The notes under the pieces: model-generated
What the model saw: the letters and a program-made list of their open reading frames with translations, nothing else
Databases searched by the model: none
Told to the model about the DNA's origin: nothing
IMG/VR virus record: IMGVR_UViG_2636416140_000002
Origin: a virus
Lineage: Duplodnaviria > Heunggongvirae > Uroviricota > Caudoviricetes
Direction: 5' to 3' (one strand)
DNA length: 9,612 nucleotides
Position numbers and translations under genes: made by a program
In this document: piece after piece, positions 1,683-9,612 of the stretch
How the letters are laid out: the number at the start of each line of letters is the position of its first letter
How positions within the stretch are numbered: the stretch's first letter is position 1

Positions 1683-1694
1683 GGGGTGGGGACG

Positions 1695-1967
1695 ATGGTA
1701 CATGACCGCATAGCGGAAGAACTGGAGGCGAAAGGCTTTTACCGGAGAGCGTCGGCGCGATGGGGTGAAGTCATGCAACTGGTGGAGACAGACAAGGAAC
1801 GGCATCACATCACGATGCGACGGCTGGAATGTTCCAGGAAGGCACAGAGGCCACCGGAGCCGCCGGATAATTACGGAGACCTGAAAAAGGCGGTCGATCG
1901 CACTTATGCCGAAATGGGTATGGATGGTGCTGGTGATGAAATATGGCGAAATTACCAGGACAGATAA
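1695..1967 (+). CDS. Small putative transcriptional regulator, possibly PerC-like (ORF track start GTG 1686; ATG 1695 preferred)
   Basis: N-terminus MVHDRIAEELEAKGFYRRASARWGEVM resembles, from memory, PerC-family small activators; not verified by search. GAGG upstream of ATG 1695. Followed by a strong terminator. Confidence 0.5.
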   Translation: MVHDRIAEELEAKGFYRRASARWGEVMQLVETDKERHHITMRRLECSRKAQRPPEPPDNYGDLKKAVDRTYAEMGMDGAGDEIWRNYQDR

Positions 1968-1973
1968 TCACAC

Positions 1974-1998
1974 AGCCGGAGCAATCCGGCTTTTTGTC
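1974..1998 (+). terminator. Rho-independent terminator
   Basis: Stem AGCCGGA (1974-1980), loop GCAA, stem TCCGGCT (1985-1991), followed by a T-run (TTTTTGT). Confidence 0.75.
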
Positions 1999-2013
1999 AT
2001 GTTTTGTAAATTA

Positions 2014-2040
2014 TTTGTTCGTGGTTGTTCCACGTTGTTC
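2014..2040 (+). promoter_or_regulatory. Three TTGTTC hexamers at exact 10-bp phase (2015, 2025, 2035) upstream of the capsid operon; candidate regulator binding site or promoter element
   Basis: Read directly. The 15-mer TTGTTCCACGTTGTT (2025-2039) recurs exactly at 9392-9406. A possible weak -10 (TATTTT, 2057-2062) lies 16 bp downstream of the last hexamer. Confidence 0.45.
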
Positions 2041-2115
2041 GCTGACCGGATCGGCATATTTTACCCGACCTGAATCATGATTATTCTCGCCCGTGGTGCC
2101 AGGACGCTGGGGCCA

Positions 2116-2165: not shown

Positions 2166-2255
2166 CGATCGGTGCGATTACTGATTTCCTTATGAAAAAC
2201 GGTTGAGTGTTTGCCGCGTCCTGGAGTTCCTTACTTAACCCCAGGACTTTTTTTT

Positions 2256-3413
2256 ATGCCGAGAATAATCGAATTACGCCAGCAGAAAACCGCCATTAAA
2301 AATCAGATGCGCGACATGCTGGAGAACGCGGAAAAAGAAAACCGCAGCCTTAACGATGCAGAGGGCGCAAAATTTGACGAATTACGCGCTAAAGCTGAAT
2401 CCCTCGATAAAGACATTTCCCGCCTTGAAGCCATTGCAGACGAAGAGCGCAGCAAGCCAGGTAAAAGCAGTCAGACCACTGACCCCGCAGAACTCCGCAA
2501 CTACATTCTGACAGGTGAAACCCGCGCATTAAGTACAGGCGTTCCCGCTGATGGTGGTTATACCGTTATCCCTGAACTGAACACCGAAATCATGCGAATG
2601 CTGGCGGATGAATCCACCATGCGCCGCATCTGTACCGTGAAGAAAATCAGCAGCAACGAGTTTAAGCAGCTTGTTTCCGCTGGCGGTGCGACCGTTAACC
2701 ACGGTGAAGAGGGTAAGGCACGCGAACAGACCAGCACCCCGCAGATTAACGAGGTGAGCATCAAGCTGTATCCGGTCTATGCGTACCCGCGCACCACACA
2801 GGAAATCGTGGATTTTTCCGATGTGGACATCCTTTCATGGCTGACGGGTGAGATTGGCGACACCTTCACGGAAACCGAAGAAAGCGATCTGGTTGTGGGC
2901 GACGGTGACAAAAAAGCAAAAGGTTTTTTATCCGTACCCCGTGCAGAGAAGAACGACAAAGAGCGTGATTTTGGTACGTTGCAGGTAATTAAACCTTCCG
3001 AATCTCTGGCGTGGACATCTGCGGACCCGCTGATCGACCTGAAATTTGCATTACGTAAAAAATACCGCAAAAACGCGGTCTGGGTGGTTAACTCCACGAC
3101 GGCGGCAAAACTTCAGAAGGTGAAGAACGCGAACGGTGATTATATCTGGCGCGACCGTTTACAGGCGGGTGATCCTGATACGTTGCTGGGCCTTCCGGTC
3201 GAATATCTGGAGTTTATGCCTGATAACGTTATTGCCCTGGGTGACTTCAAACGCGGTTACTACATTGTTGATCACGAAACAGGTGTTCGCACCAGACCGG
3301 ACAACCTGACAGAACCAGGATTCATCAAAATTTTCACGCAAAAATATTTAGGCGGTGGCGTGGTGGATTCGAACGCGATCAAGATTCTGGAACTGCCGGA
3401 AGACGACGATTAA
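2256..3413 (+). CDS. Phage major capsid protein, HK97 family, with N-terminal scaffolding (delta) domain
   Basis: 385 aa from ATG 2256 (ORF track starts at TTG 2211). Coiled-coil-like N-terminus (ELRQQKTAIKNQMRDMLENAEKENRSLNDAE...) followed by an HK97-fold-like body; AGGA 10 nt upstream of ATG. Confidence 0.92.
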   Translation: MPRIIELRQQKTAIKNQMRDMLENAEKENRSLNDAEGAKFDELRAKAESLDKDISRLEAIADEERSKPGKSSQTTDPAELRNYILTGETRALSTGVPADGGYTVIPELNTEIMRMLADESTMRRICTVKKISSNEFKQLVSAGGATVNHGEEGKAREQTSTPQINEVSIKLYPVYAYPRTTQEIVDFSDVDILSWLTGEIGDTFTETEESDLVVGDGDKKAKGFLSVPRAEKNDKERDFGTLQVIKPSESLAWTSADPLIDLKFALRKKYRKNAVWVVNSTTAAKLQKVKNANGDYIWRDRLQAGDPDTLLGLPVEYLEFMPDNVIALGDFKRGYYIVDHETGVRTRPDNLTEPGFIKIFTQKYLGGGVVDSNAIKILELPEDDD

Positions 3414-3423
3414 CAGCATACAG

Positions 3424-3452
3424 AAGGGGCTTAAAAGCCCCTTTAGTGTTTT
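3424..3452 (+). terminator. Hairpin immediately after the capsid gene (partial terminator or mRNA-stabilising stem-loop)
   Basis: AAGGGGC (3424-3430), loop TTAAAA, GCCCCTT (3437-3443), then TAGTGTTTT. The U-tract is interrupted, so read-through into the protease gene is likely. Confidence 0.5.
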
Positions 3453-4025
3453 ATGGGTGAAAAAATTATGAAGAGTATGGAAATCCGGTCATCGGAAATC
3501 ACCACCAGCGCCAGCAACACGCTTACAGGCTACGTTGTTCGCTGGGATAACCTTTCAGAGCTGCTATGGGGGGAGTTTTACGAAAAATTCCAGCGGGGAG
3601 CGTTTACTGAATGGCTTGCGGCGGGTAATGACGTTCGCGGCCTGTATGAGCATGACCACAGCATGTTACTGGGGCGCACCCGTTCCGGCACGCTGAAACT
3701 GGAAGAGGACGAAACAGGGTTACGCTTTGAACTGACCCCACCGGATACCAGTACAGGGCGCGACGTTATCGAACTGGTTAAGCGTGGGGACATCTCGGGG
3801 ATGAGCTTTGGCTTTCGCTCCCGTAAGGATGTATGGGATACCACAACAGATCCATGCGTGCGCACCGTGCTGGTGGCGGAACTGTACGAAATTACCGTTA
3901 CATCGGTACCGGCTTACCCCGATTCCGGCGTGGAGCTGGCCCGCCGTTCCCTGTATGAGCAGCACCCCGAAAAAATGCCGCGTGCGGATAATCGCCGCTG
4001 GTGGGCGGATTTAGCGGGGGTGTGA
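3453..4025 (+). CDS. Phage prohead (maturation) protease, HK97 family
   Basis: Motifs typical of HK97-type prohead proteases (GYVVRW..., EHDHSMLLGRTRSGTL, GMSFGF). Alternative starts at ATG 3468 and 3477; none has a clear SD. Confidence 0.9.
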   Translation: MGEKIMKSMEIRSSEITTSASNTLTGYVVRWDNLSELLWGEFYEKFQRGAFTEWLAAGNDVRGLYEHDHSMLLGRTRSGTLKLEEDETGLRFELTPPDTSTGRDVIELVKRGDISGMSFGFRSRKDVWDTTTDPCVRTVLVAELYEITVTSVPAYPDSGVELARRSLYEQHPEKMPRADNRRWWADLAGV

Positions 4026-4026
4026 T

Positions 4027-5238
4027 ATGTGGCCTTTCAGAAGAAAAAAAGAGCAGCGCAGCATGACGCTTGATGAGTTTATGGCGCTGGCTGGCACATC
4101 GAACACGGGGGCGGGTGAGTACGTATCATCGGGGACAGCGGAATCACTGCCCGCCGTCATGAACGCCGTCACGGTCATCTCTGAGGCGGTGGCTACCATG
4201 CCGTGTTACCTGTACCTGGTACGCAATGAGAAGGGGAAGGAGGCCCGAGAGTGGCTTGATTCTCATCCGGTCGATCACATCCTCAACGAGCGCCCGAACG
4301 CGTGGCAGACTCCCTACCAGTTTAAGCGAATGATGATCCGCCACTGCCTGTTAAACGGTAATGCTTATGCGGTGATTCAGTGGGGGCGTGATGGTTTTCC
4401 GGTGGCTTTACATCCTTACCCGCCGCAGTCGGTGAACGTGGAGCAGACAGGCGAACACAACTGGCGCTACTGCATCACTGACGCCTACACCGGAAACACC
4501 CGCAACTATTTACCGTGGGAGGTTCTCCACCTTCGTTACTCCACGGATGACGGTTTTATGGGGCGCTCACCTGTAACCATCTGCCGCGAATCGCTGGGGC
4601 TTGGGCTGGCCCAACAACGCCACGGCGCGAGCGTGATGCGTGATGGCATGATGGCGGCAGGGGTTATCACGTCAGGCGAATGGCTGGACGGCGTGAAGGG
4701 CAAACAGGCATTAGCCGCACTGGAACGCTACAAAGGGGCCAGAAACGCCGGAAAAACGCCCATCCTTGAAGGGGGTATGAGCTATCAGCAGCTGGGCATG
4801 AGTAATCAGGATGCTGAATGGCTGGCCTCCCGTCGCTTCACCATTGAAGACATCGCCCGAATGTTCAACGTCTCGCCGATTTTTTTGCAGGAATACAGCA
4901 ACAGCACCTACAGCAATTTCAGCGAGGCAAGCCGCGCATTTCTCACCATGACGATGCGCCCGTGGCTGGCGAACTTTGAGCAGCAGATAAAAAACGCCCT
5001 GCTGGTGGCCTCGCCTGTACCTGGTATCCGGTATCAGGTGGAGTTTGACAGCGCGGACCTGTTACGGGCCACACCAGGCGAACGCTTTGCCACCTATGAA
5101 CGCGGCATCAAATCCGGCGTTATGTGCCCGAACGAAGCCCGCGAACGTGAAGGGCTGTCCCCGCGTGATGGTGGTGATGAGTTCAGCCAGGCATGGAAAC
5201 AGGAAGTAAAAATCAGCGAGGGAGAAAAACCGGAATGA
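4027..5238 (+). CDS. Phage portal protein, HK97 family
   Basis: 403 aa. Start is 1 nt after the protease stop, with a GGGGG SD. Central and C-terminal regions look like HK97-type portals; acidic C-terminal tail. Alternative start ATG 4063. Confidence 0.92.
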   Translation: MWPFRRKKEQRSMTLDEFMALAGTSNTGAGEYVSSGTAESLPAVMNAVTVISEAVATMPCYLYLVRNEKGKEAREWLDSHPVDHILNERPNAWQTPYQFKRMMIRHCLLNGNAYAVIQWGRDGFPVALHPYPPQSVNVEQTGEHNWRYCITDAYTGNTRNYLPWEVLHLRYSTDDGFMGRSPVTICRESLGLGLAQQRHGASVMRDGMMAAGVITSGEWLDGVKGKQALAALERYKGARNAGKTPILEGGMSYQQLGMSNQDAEWLASRRFTIEDIARMFNVSPIFLQEYSNSTYSNFSEASRAFLTMTMRPWLANFEQQIKNALLVASPVPGIRYQVEFDSADLLRATPGERFATYERGIKSGVMCPNEAREREGLSPRDGGDEFSQAWKQEVKISEGEKPE

Positions 5239-5573
5239 ACATAGGGCGACTGCGTGACAGGGTAACGATTCAGACCCTGAAACAGACCAGGGATATAACC
5301 GGCGAAATACTCGAAACGTGGGAGGACGGTCACACACTCTGGGCAAGCGTGAACATGATCAGCAGCAAGGAGGCCATTTCATCGGGTGCAGAGCTGGCGA
5401 TTGGTACCGTAAGGATCTGGATACGGTACCGGAAGGACATCAACGCCACCAGCCGGATAAAGGTCAGTACGGGGCCGCTGGCGGGGCGTGTACTGAATAT
5501 CATCGGGCAGCCGCTGCCGGATGCCGCCAGGACACGCCTTGAAATTCTTTGTCGTGAGGGCGCGGAAAAATGA
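5235..5573 (+). CDS. Head-tail adaptor / head-closure protein (head-tail joining family)
   Basis: ATG 5235 overlaps the portal stop (ATGA). 112 aa with a pattern typical of phage head-tail joining proteins (RDRVTIQ..., ...WASV..., ...RIWIRYR...). ORF track's longer start at 5193 is less likely. Confidence 0.75.
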   Translation: MNIGRLRDRVTIQTLKQTRDITGEILETWEDGHTLWASVNMISSKEAISSGAELAIGTVRIWIRYRKDINATSRIKVSTGPLAGRVLNIIGQPLPDAARTRLEILCREGAEK

Positions 5574-5866
5574 CAGAAGAACTTATCACCCTGGAAGAAG
5601 TGAAACTCCATTGCCGCATCGATGGCGACGAGGAAGACCAGTTAATCAGCGGATACATTGCCGCATCGCTTGAGGCGTGCCAGATACATATAGGCAGGCG
5701 CTTTGATGACGGGCTGGAGTTCACGCCAGCCATAAAGATTGGCTGCATGATGTTTATCGCTCACCTGTACGAGAATCGCCAGCTGGTAGCGGATAACGCA
5801 AAAACGCGCGTACCCATGACGATTGGCGCGCTCTGGACGGCTTACCGTGATGTGGGGGTGTACTGA
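5570..5866 (+). CDS. gp6-like head-tail connector protein
   Basis: ATGA overlap with the upstream gene. N-terminus ITLEEVKLHCRIDGDEEDQLISGYIAASLEACQ is characteristic of gp6-like connector / DNA-packaging proteins. Confidence 0.82.
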   Translation: MTEELITLEEVKLHCRIDGDEEDQLISGYIAASLEACQIHIGRRFDDGLEFTPAIKIGCMMFIAHLYENRQLVADNAKTRVPMTIGALWTAYRDVGVY

Positions 5867-6306
5867 TGCCGTGGCAACCATTAAGACGATGCACAGAACC
5901 AGGCTGTAACAGGCGCGTGAAGTCCGGCAAGTGTGAGGAGCACAGGCGGGCGGCATGGCGTGCAGAGGATGCCAGACGAGGACACCGCCGCGCGCGTGGG
6001 TACTCCAGACAGTGGGACAAATACCGCGCCATGTATCTGAGTAAAAACCCGTTATGCGTGCGATGCCTTGAGAAGGGGATATATACGCCCGCCGTGGTGG
6101 TGGATCACATTATCCCGATTAATGGCGGTGATGATGTTCTCTTCTGGCCCGAATGGAACCATCAACCATTGTGCCAGGCGTGTCATAACCAGAAAACGAA
6201 ATGGCTTGATCCGGCAACAAAAAGCAAGCGTGCCGCAGGTGGATTTCATGAAGAGGAAGAACGGGCCGCTAACCGCAATAACTGGATGTATGACGCTGAT
6301 GAATGA
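5866..6306 (+). CDS. HNH endonuclease (packaging-associated, adjacent to terminase)
   Basis: Cys-rich N-terminus (C..PGC...GKCEEH) and HNH core (VVDHIIPINGGDD...NHQPLCQACHNQKT). TGATG overlap with the connector gene. Position just upstream of terS is typical of cos-type HK97-like systems. Confidence 0.9.
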   Translation: MPWQPLRRCTEPGCNRRVKSGKCEEHRRAAWRAEDARRGHRRARGYSRQWDKYRAMYLSKNPLCVRCLEKGIYTPAVVVDHIIPINGGDDVLFWPEWNHQPLCQACHNQKTKWLDPATKSKRAAGGFHEEEERAANRNNWMYDADE

Positions 6307-6472
6307 GCGGGAACAAAACCGCCTTATCCGTGGACTGATAAGGCAGCGTGACGCATGGAAGACACAGGAAACAGGGCATAAAGATAAAGCGTCAGGACGC
6401 GCAGAACGCATCACAGCGAAGCGATTAACCGACCGTGGCCGCGAGGTTATGGAATGTTTCCGCAATCGCTGA
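6299..6472 (+). CDS. Hypothetical small ORF (57 aa) in the HNH-terS interval; may instead be a displaced fragment of the terS 5' region
   Basis: ATG 6299 overlaps the HNH 3' end; weak SD. Sequence ...SGRAERITAKRLTDRGRE loosely resembles Arg/Lys-rich N-termini of small terminases. Low confidence. Confidence 0.3.
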   Translation: MNEREQNRLIRGLIRQRDAWKTQETGHKDKASGRAERITAKRLTDRGREVMECFRNR

Positions 6473-6542
6473 TGAGGCTGTATGACGGGGTGGGGGGCGT
6501 TTTCAGGACAAACCCGACCCCGCCTACCTGGATGACATCGCC

Positions 6543-6854
6543 GTGAAGCAGTGGCGGGAAAAATCGCGGCAGCTTGCGGAACGGGGAGACCTGACCCCCG
6601 CCGACTGGAGCAATCTGGAACTGTATTGTGTCAACTACTCCATTTACCGGAAAGCCGTCGCAGACCTTGCGGCGCGCGGGTTCAGCATTGTTAACAGTCA
6701 GGGCGGCGAGAGCAGAAACCCCGCATTAAGCGCGAAATCAGACGCTGAAAGGGTGATGATAAAAATGGCCTCCTTGCTCGGTTTTGACCCGATAAGCCGC
6801 CGTAAAAACCCACCGGAAACAGAAGAAGAGGACGAGCTTGACCGCCTGGAATAA
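6543..6854 (+). CDS. terS: Terminase small subunit, P27/HK97-gp1-like family; annotated in-frame part only, N-terminus appears frame-disrupted
   Basis: Conserved-looking core DLTPADWSNLELYCVNYSIYRKAV. The family motif appears to begin upstream of the first in-frame start (GTG 6543) as ...KPDPAYLDDIA in the same frame, which is closed by a stop at 6483-6485. A good SD plus ATG at 6454 is in the +1 frame. Confidence 0.8.
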   Translation: MKQWREKSRQLAERGDLTPADWSNLELYCVNYSIYRKAVADLAARGFSIVNSQGGESRNPALSAKSDAERVMIKMASLLGFDPISRRKNPPETEEEDELDRLE

Positions 6855-8499
6855 GTACGCAGAAGACGTAAAAACGGGCAAAATTCCGGCCTGTAAACGG
6901 CTGAAACAGGCCGTTAAACGGTACTTTTCGGACCTTAAAAGCCCCCTTTACACGTTCGATCGTGAGGTTGTGGAGCGGTTTATTGCCTTTTCCAGGGTGT
7001 GCCCGCACGTAAAAGGACCGATGCGTGGCAGACCCATTGAGCTGGAGCCGTGGCAGCAGTTCGCCTTTGCGTGCATCCTCGGCTTTAAGGTTAAGGCCAC
7101 CGGACGGCGCAAATACACGAGCGCCTTTATCGAAGTGCCGCGCAAAAATGCGAAATCCACGACCGCCGCGATTCTGGCTAACTGGTTTCTGATTATGGAG
7201 AACGGTCAGCAGGATATCTACACCGCAGCGGTGAGCCGTGACCAGGCGCGGATCGTCTTTGATGATGCGCGTCAGATGTGCCTTTTATCCCGACCGTTAC
7301 GCAGGCGGGTGAATATTCAGGCGCATAAGGTGATACACCCGAAAAGCAACAGCCTGTTAAAGCCGCTGGCAGCAAAAGCGGCAACCATCGAGGGAACAAA
7401 CCCAAGCCTTTCCATCGTGGACGAATACCACTTGCACCCCGATAACGGCGTTTATTCCGCGCTTGAGCTGGGGATGGGCGCACGTCCCGAAGGGCTGTTA
7501 TTTGCCATTACCACATCAGGCAGCAACGTCGTTTCAGCCTGTAAACAGCACTATGATTATTGCTGCCAGATCCTGGACGGCGAAGAGGTTAACGATTCAA
7601 TTTTTGTACTGATTTACGAACTGGACGACGAAAACGAGGTTGATGATCCGGCGATGTGGATAAAGGCGAACCCTAATATTGATGTTTCCGTCGATCGTGA
7701 AAAACTGGCCTCAACCATCCAGAAAGCGCGGGGTATTCCGTCGCAGTGGGTGGAGATGATGACAAAGCGATTTAATATCTGGTGCCAGGGGGCTACCCCG
7801 TGGATGGGTAACGGCGCATGGGCTGAGTGTGCCGGAACGTTCACGGAGGAAGATTTACACGGCCAGGAGTGTTACGCGGGGCTGGACTTATCATCAACCA
7901 GCGATATTTCCAGCGTGTGCTATGCCTTTCCGGTCGGTAAAACCATTATGCTGGTTTCCCGTCACTATCTGCCGGAATTTCAGCTACAGAACCCCGCCAA
8001 TAAAAACCGCGCCATCTATCGTCAGTGGGCTAAAGCAGGCTGGATACGCACAACGCCTGGCGACTGCATTGATTACGACCGGATCAGAGATGACATCATG
8101 CAGGACGCGGAGAAATTTAATATCAGGCTGGTGGGCTTTGATACGTGGAACGCCACGCATCTCAGAACGCAATTACAGGGGGCAGGTTTTGAGGTGGAGC
8201 CGTTCCCGCAAACCTACCTCAGATTCAGTCCGGCGGCGAAATCGTTCGAAGTTTTTGTTAACCGCAGGGTGATTGTGCATCGTGGCGATCCGGTGTTGTC
8301 CTGGTCGATGAGTAACGTCGTGATGCAGAGTGACGCGAACGCCAATATCAAGCCGAACAAGAAAAAATCACCGAACAAGATAGACCCGAGCGTGGCGGCG
8401 CTGATGGCGTTTGGTACATTCCAGGCAGAGCATGAGGATTTTGCTTTTGATATAAGCGACAGCCACCGCCAGAAACTGGAAGAATTTAGCGGGGTGTAA
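6838..8499 (+). CDS. terL: Terminase large subunit (ATPase and nuclease)
   Basis: 553 aa. TTG start with GAGGA SD 5 nt upstream, overlapping the terS 3' end. N-terminus AWNKYAEDVKTGKIPACKRLKQAV and ATPase region are typical of large terminases; acidic residues in the C-terminal nuclease part. Confidence 0.93.
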   Translation: MTAWNKYAEDVKTGKIPACKRLKQAVKRYFSDLKSPLYTFDREVVERFIAFSRVCPHVKGPMRGRPIELEPWQQFAFACILGFKVKATGRRKYTSAFIEVPRKNAKSTTAAILANWFLIMENGQQDIYTAAVSRDQARIVFDDARQMCLLSRPLRRRVNIQAHKVIHPKSNSLLKPLAAKAATIEGTNPSLSIVDEYHLHPDNGVYSALELGMGARPEGLLFAITTSGSNVVSACKQHYDYCCQILDGEEVNDSIFVLIYELDDENEVDDPAMWIKANPNIDVSVDREKLASTIQKARGIPSQWVEMMTKRFNIWCQGATPWMGNGAWAECAGTFTEEDLHGQECYAGLDLSSTSDISSVCYAFPVGKTIMLVSRHYLPEFQLQNPANKNRAIYRQWAKAGWIRTTPGDCIDYDRIRDDIMQDAEKFNIRLVGFDTWNATHLRTQLQGAGFEVEPFPQTYLRFSPAAKSFEVFVNRRVIVHRGDPVLSWSMSNVVMQSDANANIKPNKKKSPNKIDPSVAALMAFGTFQAEHEDFAFDISDSHRQKLEEFSGV

Positions 8500-8512: not shown

Positions 8513-8794
8513 ATGACAGAAGCCGAAATAACGGGATTAATCCGCCGCGTTGCCGGAATCAGCCAGCAGGCTGACGAACAGGCCACGCAGCCGGACAGCG
8601 TGACAGCCGAAAACTATGCGCGTGTTGTTGCTGAGGTGATGCGCCGTGATGGTATAGAACTTAATGGCGTGGATATGCGCAACATACGAACCAGAGTTCT
8701 TGAGTTGCTGGCCTACCGTCGCCGCGTGGAGATGTATCGGGAGAAGGAGAAAATAACGTACCACTGGAAGAAGCCGGAGCGGTTGCGGCGGTAA
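8513..8794 (+). CDS. Hypothetical protein (93 aa), last gene of the packaging operon
   Basis: Good SD (GAGGT) 7 nt upstream, tight spacing after terL, reasonable codon usage. Charged, likely helical; no family recognised. Confidence 0.6.
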   Translation: MTEAEITGLIRRVAGISQQADEQATQPDSVTAENYARVVAEVMRRDGIELNGVDMRNIRTRVLELLAYRRRVEMYREKEKITYHWKKPERLRR

Positions 8795-9048
8795 CTGGTT
8801 GATATTCCCGACGGCCCAAAAATGGGTTGGCTACACCCCTCACAACTACGACATTTTCGCAGTTTAATTAATGGTCAGCTTAATCGCTAACCCGCTGATA
8901 TTTTCGGAAACCTCAATTTGAGGAAGTCGGCGCGGTAACTCGCTGAACTTTAAGCAAAGCGCAAAATTGCGCTTGCTGAATAATCATTATGATTACGCAG
9001 ATGATTAAGGAATGACCGAAGGCGGAAATTCGCCTGTGGTTAATGGGG

Positions 9049-9068
9049 GAGTTGCAGATCTGCAACTC
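9049..9068. promoter_or_regulatory. Perfect 20-bp palindrome GAGTTGCAGATCTGCAACTC (contains GATC)
   Basis: Reverse complement is identical to the sequence; lies in non-coding DNA downstream of the packaging genes. Confidence 0.6.
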
Positions 9069-9117
9069 GACCATGAAACTACGGAAACTACCCGTAGTTT
9101 GGGTAGTAAGAGTAACA

Positions 9118-9157
9118 CCCAGATTTTGGGGCTTACTCGTGATACCCAAATTTGGGG
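9118..9157. repeat. Two near-identical palindromic units CCCAGATTTTGGGG (9118-9131) and CCCAAATTTGGGG (9145-9157) in direct orientation
   Basis: Read directly; each unit is itself dyad-symmetric (CCCAAATTTGGG is a perfect palindrome). Confidence 0.55.
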
Positions 9158-9301
9158 TATCAGTGGCAACCATAACGACTTTCGTTACGGTTGATGCTTT
9201 TACCCCATTGGGGGAAAGGTATTACGATAATCATAACACCTACCGAACAGGTAAAGCCCACCAGCCTGATTAACGTTTAACCGGAAAAAAATTCCGGTAG
9301 G

Positions 9302-9313: not shown

Positions 9314-9381
9314 TATCGACATTAACGCCCCTCATGAATTGGTGTGCTTCCCCCTGGAAAGATGATCCGCCTGTATATTTC

Positions 9382-9407
9382 TTGTGTCTATTTGTTCCAC
9401 GTTGTTT
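9382..9407 (+). promoter_or_regulatory. Second copy of the 10-bp-phased TTGTKY triplet, including the exact 15-mer TTGTTCCACGTTGTT (9392-9406) shared with 2025-2039
   Basis: Hexamers at 9382 (TTGTGT), 9392 (TTGTTC) and 9402 (TTGTTT). Confidence 0.45.
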
Positions 9408-9424
9408 CATACAGTGCACCGAAC

Positions 9425-9446
9425 GGTGTAGTCACTGGTGTAGTCA
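9425..9446 (+). repeat. Direct repeat GGTGTAGTCA x2 (period 12 bp), preceded by dyad CACCG-AA-CGGTG
   Basis: Copies at 9425-9434 and 9437-9446; candidate arm-type or regulator binding sites. Confidence 0.4.
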
Positions 9447-9492
9447 TTTTGCGATTTTTGGCACTTTTTGCGGTGTTAATTATTTAATTAAA

Positions 9493-9612
9493 TCAATGTG
9501 TTATGCGAAATAAGTTATATATAACAGCAATAAATAATGCGAGAATAAACGGCACGATGATCTCGGCGGCAAAACGGATACCGCAGAGAATAATGACCAG
9601 CATTCCCAACAT
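9493..9612 (-). CDS. 3' end of a minus-strand ORF encoding a hydrophobic (membrane) segment; ATG sits exactly at the window edge, so it is either a complete 39-aa small membrane protein or the C-terminus of a longer flanking gene
   Basis: Reverse-strand translation [39 protein letters not shown], stop at 9493-9495. GC-rich third positions in the first 20 codons suggest real coding. Not in the ORF track because it is under 60 aa within the window. Confidence 0.4.

Follow-up and report, generated by a model that had tools for sequence, protein, structure and literature searches.

A 9,612-nt stretch of DNA from the IMG/VR record IMGVR_UViG_2636416140_000002 (Caudoviricetes), referred to as a whole as the window, carries two arrays of helically phased TTGT hexamers, one in front of a capsid operon and the other beside an attachment site. 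These arrays are probably operators of one element-encoded protein, for which the 62-residue winged-helix protein AlpA is the strongest candidate. The best reading of the sequences would be that AlpA operators join excision, autoactivation of alpA, and expression of the capsid operon; activation of the capsid operon by AlpA binding is held with somewhat less confidence than the assignment of the arrays to AlpA. From the arrangement described below, we infer AlpA as the binder, activation of transcription at site 1, and the position of the capsid-operon promoter.

Judged by ORF calling, Pfam, and a megablast search of complete E. coli genomes, the window covers the right two-thirds of a capsid-forming PICI (cf-PICI) of the EcCIEDL933 type, an E. 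coli satellite that is inserted in tqsA. Its genes run in the order two small genes, ssb, a PerC-family gene, the head/packaging operon, and one small ORF. The operon encodes an HK97-type major capsid protein, prohead protease, portal, head-closure and connector proteins, an HNH endonuclease, TerS, and TerL. The last element ORF ends at 8794, and about 700 bp of noncoding DNA at the right end is followed by a 5′ fragment of the host gene tqsA. Among the complete relatives found, L001 (strain CD45) was the closest, being 97% identical over the window, and it has an element of 15.3 kb. The left part of L001, missing from the window, encodes a P4-like integrase with an N-terminal arm-binding domain (Arm-DNA-bind_3, PF13356), a 62-aa Phage_AlpA protein (PF05930, 5e-18), the gene of which lies 375 bp downstream of int, and a RepA helicase. 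The gene content of L001 and its 15.3-kb element in tqsA agree with the definition of cf-PICIs (10.1101/2025.02.11.637232). When the chromosomal flanks were joined in silico, they matched intact tqsA with 100% identity in one piece (top matches, e.g. H26-H30), and this query was at least 80% covered at one place in 5166 genomes. The match to intact tqsA fixes the 9-bp att core at the position given in Table 1.

Several other features of the window were recorded. Positions 1-533 and 716-1248 are identical over 533 bp, with 540-712 between them, and form a 715-bp tandem duplication that spans the two small genes and a GTGGGGA iteron cluster resembling a replication origin. This duplication was absent from all 31 related loci that contain the probe sequence, and it may be either a genuine doubling of the origin or an artefact of assembly. 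The E. coli Chi octamer GCTGGTGG is present in 12 copies, compared with 0.32 expected (maximum 3 in 200 shuffles), at 324, 1039, 1301, 3869, 3997, 5001, and 8127 on the + strand and at 1327, 1635, 3502, 5446, and 9258 on the - strand. L001 holds 15 copies in its 15.3-kb element and a single one in 12.3 kb of flanking chromosome. Classical PICIs are enriched to a similar degree, whereas a Gilliamella cf-PICI and phage P4 have none. The enrichment may protect satellite DNA from RecBCD while it is linear or concatemeric. A perfect 18-nt inverted repeat (ATCAGGCTGGTGGGCTTT / AAAGCCCACCAGCCTGAT) joins 8122-8139 in the terL coding sequence and 9253-9270 in the noncoding right end, and each arm holds one Chi site, giving two opposed Chi sites with identical flanks. 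Short palindromes and repeats are clustered at 8940-9180 after the last ORF (e.g. 8951-8975, 9040-9077, and 9078-9100), together with paired acccagattttgggg / acccaaatttgggg units. This cluster, which is separate from the att arm carrying site 2, may be the cos/packaging region of the satellite.

The exact 15-mer TTGTTCCACGTTGTT occurs on the + strand at 2025-2039 and 9392-9406, and both copies are noncoding according to the annotation of L001, the 97% identical relative, as a sequence-only reading of this DNA had claimed. It is the sole direct 15-mer common within the window when the 715-bp duplication is excluded. Some exact direct 15-mer repeat was found in 20 of 500 dinucleotide shuffles (4%); the 15-mer on its own is weak, borderline evidence, and the phasing is what counts. 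The pattern TTGT-N6-TTGT-N6-TTGT matches the window only at 2015-2038 and 9382-9405, and none of 200 window shuffles contained a match. The three central hexamers are perfect TTGTTC copies in site 1, and those of site 2 are TTGTGT, TTGTTC, and TTGTTT (starts in Table 1). Three TTGTNN hexamers per site with 10-bp spacing had been described in the sequence-only reading, and these were confirmed, with coordinates right within 1 nt. The two sites are 77% identical over 35 nt (2005-2039 versus 9372-9406). Site 1 is located in the 288-bp gap between the stop of the PerC-family gene (1967) and the capsid ATG (2256), directly 3′ of a terminator-like hairpin (1974-1991). Site 2 is located between the last element ORF and the tqsA fragment, 114-150 bp from the core. 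The same reading had placed site 2 in the palindrome-rich right end and linked it to excision; the attR location supports the link, and the place is better named the P arm of attR. Excisionase-type proteins that use a head-to-tail layout with one helical turn per repeat bind cooperatively and bend DNA, and the layout of both sites fits the cooperative type of binding site that had been suggested.

Table 1. Positions of the arrays and neighbouring features in the window and in the complete relative L001
Feature	Sequence	Position	Strand	Basis or remark
PerC-family gene	window	1686-1967	+	Pfam PF06069, E=3e-43; last gene of upstream operon
Terminator-like hairpin with T-run	window	1974-1995	+	7-bp stem, 5 GC pairs, TTTTTGT tail; ends upstream operon
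Site 1, five TTGT units phased 10-11 bp	window	1994-2040	+	TTGTCA 1994, TTGTAA 2004, TTGTTC 2015, 2025, 2035
Candidate sigma-70 promoter, capsid operon	window	2060-2087	+	-35 TTTACC 2060-2065, 16-nt spacer, -10 TATTCT 2082-2087; lax scan
Last leader hairpin with T8	window	2218-2255	+	directly before capsid ATG; 3′ arm holds AGGA Shine-Dalgarno
Capsid/packaging operon	window	2256-8499	+	ORF calling, Pfam, megablast; presumed regulated target
Site 2, four phased units	window	9371-9407	+	CTGTAT 9371, TTGTGT 9382, TTGTTC 9392, TTGTTT 9402
Tandem 12-mer pair GGTGTAGTCACT / GGTGTAGTCATT	window	9425-9448	+	predicted integrase arm-type sites; only at both att arms of L001
att core ATAACAGCA, 9 bp	window	9521-9529	.	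common to both junctions; right element boundary inside tqsA
attL array	L001	3254-3287	+	phased-pattern scan; ~60 bp upstream of int
int-alpA spacer array, five units	L001	4665-4622	-	phased-pattern scan
Capsid-upstream array (site 1)	L001	10800-10823	+	240 bp upstream of capsid ATG
attR array (site 2)	L001	18303-18326	+	phased-pattern scan

In L001, the phased pattern was found at four places only within 27.5 kb and in none of 100 L001 shuffles. The attL and int-alpA arrays of this complete element fall outside the window. With a relaxed 15/18 match, L001 again had exactly four arrays and no further sites were added. Under the same match, classical PICIs with the same AlpA and no capsid module had exactly three (attL, int-alpA spacer, and attR), or two in loci that start inside int, where attL is cut off. 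The 12 kb of chromosomal flank contained no arrays, so that arrays were inside the element only.

The comparison set comprised 134 loci, namely L001 and 133 more fetched with the capsid and AlpA proteins. They contained 211 strict arrays (attL, 28; int-alpA spacer, 82; capsid upstream, 55; attR, 43; elsewhere, 3), counts that are not independent events because the loci are closely related and partly redundant. Arrays had 3-6 units with 10-bp (once 11-bp) spacing and a single orientation within each array. The unit consensus extends to TTGTTC(CACG), and for this reason two near-consensus units share the exact 15-mer. The capsid-upstream array was the best match of all arrays (18/18 positions) and stood at a fixed 240 or 220 bp from the ATG in about 60 loci, including those with capsids of 63-75% identity. 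This distance was constant even where the downstream leader was unrelated, and the few apparent absences of the capsid array were single-base variants of one hexamer. The scan of the element and its relatives thus bore out the claim that the first site stands upstream of the capsid operon, placed it about 240 bp before the capsid ATG, and found it positionally conserved rather than absent. Diversity among arrays was confined to those of the int-alpA spacer, of which there were 31 versions (3-6 units). When 48 distinct int-alpA spacers were aligned without reference to the motif, column identity was 99.3% for TTGT, compared with 80% elsewhere in the arrays and 84.5% in the spacer sequence beyond them (permutation p < 1e-4). 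These results indicate that the TTGT of the hexamer is under stronger conservation than the spacers, pointing to selection on the hexamer.

Arrays also vary in extent and placement. Between the core and the strong attL array of L001 (3181-3250), weaker nTGTTT units keep the 10-bp phasing from about 15 bp past the core, giving about ten phased units at attL in all, which would allow room for a long protein filament on that arm. L032, from a group with AlpA of about 64% identity, has a strong array just after alpA and before the next operon (2551-2574, +), and in this allele group the array upstream of alpA is degenerate (nnGTTC units, - strand). Early-region wiring therefore differs between AlpA allele groups. 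In distant cf-PICIs (Citrobacter, Erwinia, Gilliamella, and Rosenbergiella; AlpA at most 52% identical, or none found), no alternative phased motif common to the capsid-upstream and att/alpA regions, and hence no covarying one, was found. Isolated repeats were seen there: TTACCC three times about 190 bp upstream of the capsid gene in L005 and L062, GTATTCAC iterons in L006 and L061, and TTTGCCA arrays beyond terL in L059.

Several lines of evidence point to AlpA as the binder. Direct repeats with a spacing of one helix turn are typical of RDF sites (PMC7498355; PMC11963761), and the arrays consist of at least three head-to-tail repeats about one helical turn apart. As for RDF-type operators, arrays stand in the att arms beside integrase arm-type sites, with the boundaries confirmed, and a small winged-helix protein (62 aa, PF05930) is encoded near int, outside the window. 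As for dual-function RDF/regulators, the motif present at att recurs at two internal places, between int and alpA and 240 bp before the capsid ATG. Essentially all array-bearing loci that extend over the left end contained both int and alpA. The capsid array was present in 49 of 50 loci with an AlpA at least 60% identical and absent in the 4 with at most 52%. The AlpA alleles of array-bearing loci have R-x-x-R-Y in the recognition helix and LGGRSVGW in the wing, and AlpA is alignable with P4 Vis and has a PDB sequence match, 8c3t ("AlpA family phage regulatory protein"). A literature search on PICI AlpA operators, footprints, and PDB 8c3t returned nothing relevant.

Published genetics agrees with this assignment. 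EcCICFT073 and EcCIEDL933 are reported to have identical alpA genes. In EcCICFT073, AlpA turns on its own promoter and induces Int-dependent excision and replication with no rise in int expression (PMC6092414). Because excision is triggered without more int expression, these data argue for a direct role of AlpA at att (PMC6092414). In EcCIEDL933, mutation of alpA abolished induction and transfer (10.1101/2022.09.08.507074), and an AlpA homologue is the excisionase of CP4So (PMC5148205). The suggestion of the sequence-only reading that an AlpA- or Xis-like dual regulator would fit is thus matched by an element that encodes a 62-aa PF05930 AlpA, a protein published as needed for excision and induction. 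Those parts of that reading that comparative data could address were all borne out. A Pint fusion in EcCICFT073 was unchanged by AlpA (PMC6092414); given the array just upstream of int, occupancy there is either without transcriptional effect or absent. In the cf-PICI preprint, the alpA-overexpressing strain also carries a helper prophage, so capsid expression in that strain need not be due to AlpA alone.

Other observations also count against AlpA. L153 combines a perfect capsid-upstream array and a degenerate attL array with two AlpA-like proteins of only 60% and 48% identity, both with a divergent recognition helix. The presence of arrays on both att arms is also atypical, since classical RDFs usually bind one arm.

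In type, the predicted system would resemble P4 Vis, P2 Cox, 186 Apl, and RdfS, in which att and promoters carry the same phased repeats for one small winged-helix protein. P4 Vis (ORF88), which we take to be a member of the AlpA family, is a small protein with a winged-helix region alignable with AlpA, from a satellite with a P4-type integrase, the arm sites of which are likewise tandem 12-bp pairs on both arms. Vis is reportedly needed for excision, binds between int and the att core, and bends DNA, and it is said to regulate the late promoters PLL and Psid. It differs in its distant sequence, in its target, which is a capsid-size/late-regulatory operon and not a full head/packaging operon, and in its reported effect on PLL and Pint, which is negative; the TTGTTC motif and both-arm arrays are not described in P4. 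P2 Cox at P4 PLL offers an RDF that activates a satellite late promoter, with the same protein acting at att (PMC7498355). Its boxes there are three head-to-tail 10-bp repeats, CCACTTAAAG, TCATTTAAAG, and CCACTTAAAG (P4 9176-9205), and the upstream position of site 1 resembles theirs; unlike AlpA, Cox is helper encoded, belongs to another protein family, and reads another motif.

The 186 Apl protein binds 5-7 direct repeats, 10-11 bp apart, at att and a promoter region, and its binding is cooperative and bends DNA (PMC7498355). Unlike the predicted AlpA system, Apl represses early lytic and lysogenic promoters, has no known structural-gene role, and is a sequence outlier. RdfS of ICEMlSymR7A is a winged-helix RDF that forms oligomers along attP beside the arm sites of IntS; it switches on PintS and also adjusts the activity of its own promoter (PMC11963761). 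It comes from an integrative conjugative element and has no discrete repeated hexamer and no capsid-gene link. In lambda Xis, head-to-tail winged-helix protomers occupy the repeats X1, X1.5, and X2 beside Int arm sites (PMC7498355), but on one arm only and with no transcriptional regulon. Pseudomonas aeruginosa AlpA shares the name and is a promoter-bound factor that opens a lysis/late operon across a terminator. It has more than 140 residues and a 21Q-like fold, is not of PF05930 size, and uses a single GGGACG element between -35 and -10 to ride with RNA polymerase (PMC9371919). An antitermination model of this kind was rejected: the P. aeruginosa protein is much larger and different and has a single intra-promoter site. 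Q-like antitermination was likewise set aside, as the arrays are upstream of the candidate -35 and the PICI AlpA has only 62 residues.

At the capsid operon, the terminator closes the upstream operon, and the capsid operon therefore needs its own promoter. A consensus promoter scan from the array to the capsid gene found none; the promoter may be too weak, as expected if it is activator dependent. A lax scan found a -35 of TTTAC(C/A) or TTTATC, a 16-nt spacer, and a -10 of TATTCT or TATGTT in three leader types, and this shared arrangement starts 23-25 nt past the third TTGTTC (window/L001, L130, and L060). Relative to the candidate promoter, with a predicted transcription start near 2094, the five units of site 1 would lie at about -100 to -54, the position of a class-I activator.

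The leader itself (2066-2262) is strongly structured (RNA fold -67.4 kcal/mol, z = -4.15), with an inverted repeat of 18-bp arms at 2116-2165 that is kept in a 69%-identical relative. The hairpin and T-run before the ATG are kept in L060 (capsid 69% identical) and not in L092 or L130; with its U8 and buried AGGA, the hairpin looks like a terminator or a translational control element. Between perC and the array, some relatives have a 74-aa hypothetical gene (L001 10399-10799; L002 9350-9745) flanked by two copies of the terminator hairpin CAGCCGGAGCAATCCGGCTTTTT, which suggests that the slot between perC and the operator is cassette-like and variable; this gene is missing in the window.

The promoter region also bears on the alternative that survives best, although we regard it as unlikely: AlpA would bind site 1 but repress or act architecturally, for instance by occluding a promoter with the third TTGTTC as its -35, which would leave transcription of the operon to another factor or to read-through. 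Such a promoter (TTGTTC-16-TATTTT) does overlap the third repeat in the window, L001, and L060, and P4 Vis is said to repress PLL and Pint. Most dual-function RDFs are repressors (Apl; Cox at Pc) (PMC7498355). However, the overlapping promoter is missing in the L130-type leader, whereas TTTACM-16-TATKYT is common to all three leader types, and the terminator ends the upstream operon. AlpA is, moreover, a genetically defined activator of PICI genes (PMC6092414), and P2 Cox activates P4 PLL from three 10-bp repeats (PMC7498355, its ref. 41). Activation by AlpA from site 1 is therefore preferred.

It is improbable that site 1 is instead bound by the PerC-family protein, which would activate the capsid operon while the likeness of attR would be incidental or a second PerC target. 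The perC gene adjoins site 1, the DNA just upstream of the array is AT rich, and the PerC/Pch family includes transcriptional activators of horizontally acquired genes (PMC4764244). Against this, six loci have the capsid array but no PerC, among them a Shigella element with a perC remnant, classical PICIs with perC have no array after perC, and PerC-less PICIs retain the att and alpA arrays. Pch binds AT-rich regions and has no defined motif and no known DNA-binding fold (PMC4764244), and the PerC-like genes of EcCIEDL933 and EcCICFT073 are mentioned in a citation within PMC11773190 as without effect on LEE1 fusions. The structure predicted for the PerC protein of the window was all helical (pLDDT 66, pTM 0.27) and too poor for a fold search, and a PDB sequence search gave weak coiled-coil-like matches only.

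We assign a similarly small probability to a reading in which a host or helper-phage protein reads the arrays, or in which the arrays act through intrinsic DNA curvature and have no protein of their own. Curvature can arise from phased T-rich units, T-tracts precede site 1, and helper phages control induction (PMC6092414). Similar TTGTTC arrays also occur in unrelated viral contigs: a scan of IMG/VR for three TTGTTC-N4 units returned more than 120 stretches, and only 22 of the 117 analyzed were PICI relatives. The remaining stretches were 10-bp minisatellites or members of other recurrent families, and the motif alone therefore has no diagnostic value. However, the G and C of TTGTTC are conserved and are not needed for curvature alone, the arrays are confined to the element and are lacking in 12 kb of chromosomal flank, and they track the regulatory module of the element. 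Among the unrelated matches, one recurrent family (L136, L138, L140, and at least 12 other IMG/VR contigs) has TCTAGTTGTTCCCGTTGTTCCCAGTTGTTCCGAGTTGTTCC followed by inverted GGGAACAAC, and a second has GGCCGGAACAATCATTGTTCCACATTGTTCCACATTGTTCCGGCC; both are TTGTTCC arrays with 10-bp phasing.

The att arms contain a second class of repeat. On both arms of L001, the array is followed after 9-17 bp by the tandem 12-mer pair. The sequence of this pair differs by Int allele: GGTGTAGTCACT in the reference, GGTGTAGTTAAT with an Int 90% identical that uses another chromosomal site, and, with more diverged integrases, TGTGTGGTCAGT (Int 67%) and TGTGTATTGCAC (Int 41%). The 12-mer changes with Int at both arms, and TTGTTC is constant across integrase alleles. 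The GenBank record of P4 annotates an "attP arm sequence repeat" as tandem 12-bp pairs on both sides of the core. The pair lies 73-96 bp from the core in the window (9425-9448) and 129-152 bp from it on the other arm (L001 3297-3320), compared with about 54-96 and 113-155 bp for the P4 arm repeats, and it flanks the core in the same orientation, as in a P4-type attP. Because the 12-mers covary with Int and match the P4 arm repeats, they make better candidates for integrase arm sites, which assigns the TTGTTC arrays to a different protein. This leaves only a slight chance that the TTGTTC arrays are themselves the arm sites of the P4-like integrase, with Int acting as a regulator at the int-alpA and capsid copies. 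The presence of arrays on both att arms, as for integrase arm sites, the PF13356 arm-binding domain of Int, and the autoregulation ascribed to P4 Int and IntS (PMC11963761, in part) speak for it. Against it, the 12-mer pair fits better, being present at the two arms only, at P4-like distances from the core, and changing with the Int allele, and arrays 1.3 kb and 7.5 kb from the core are without precedent as arm sites. That the 15-mer is a functionless chance match or duplication relic has negligible probability: an exact direct 15-mer repeat does arise in 4% of shuffles, but the phased pattern arises in none, four arrays per element hold conserved positions in over 100 loci, and the hexamer is conserved against variable spacers.

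If the arrays are AlpA operators, the following mechanism could operate. A helper phage would turn on alpA, and AlpA would fill the array in the int-alpA spacer and establish positive feedback. Filling of the attL and attR arrays beside the integrase arm sites would steer Int to excision, and occupation of site 1, about -100 to -54 relative to the capsid-operon promoter, would turn on the head/packaging genes.

cf-PICIs are recently described, widespread satellites that build their own capsids and take only phage tails, and no description of a switch for their packaging operon was found in the papers searched. What is new here is the identification of a predicted operator for the AlpA of enterobacterial PICIs and a layout of four sites that includes arrays on both arms. 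A third new point concerns cf-PICIs alone, in which the fourth array, the strongest, appears to have been recruited before a complete head/packaging operon. It is a tentative but serious possibility that cf-PICIs shed their need for helper late regulators by placing the best AlpA operator of the element (18/18) before an acquired HK97-type operon. In the same reading, AlpA filaments along the two att arms would form a symmetric RDF architecture that has no described counterpart among lambda-type systems. Telling apart the two classes of att-arm repeats, RDF sites and integrase arm sites, helps in annotating PICI boundaries and is also useful for engineering PICIs as delivery vehicles. The predicted four-site AlpA regulon provides a mutable handle of three to five hexamers for asking whether one 62-residue protein couples excision, its own amplification, and capsid production, and why capsids appear without a helper.
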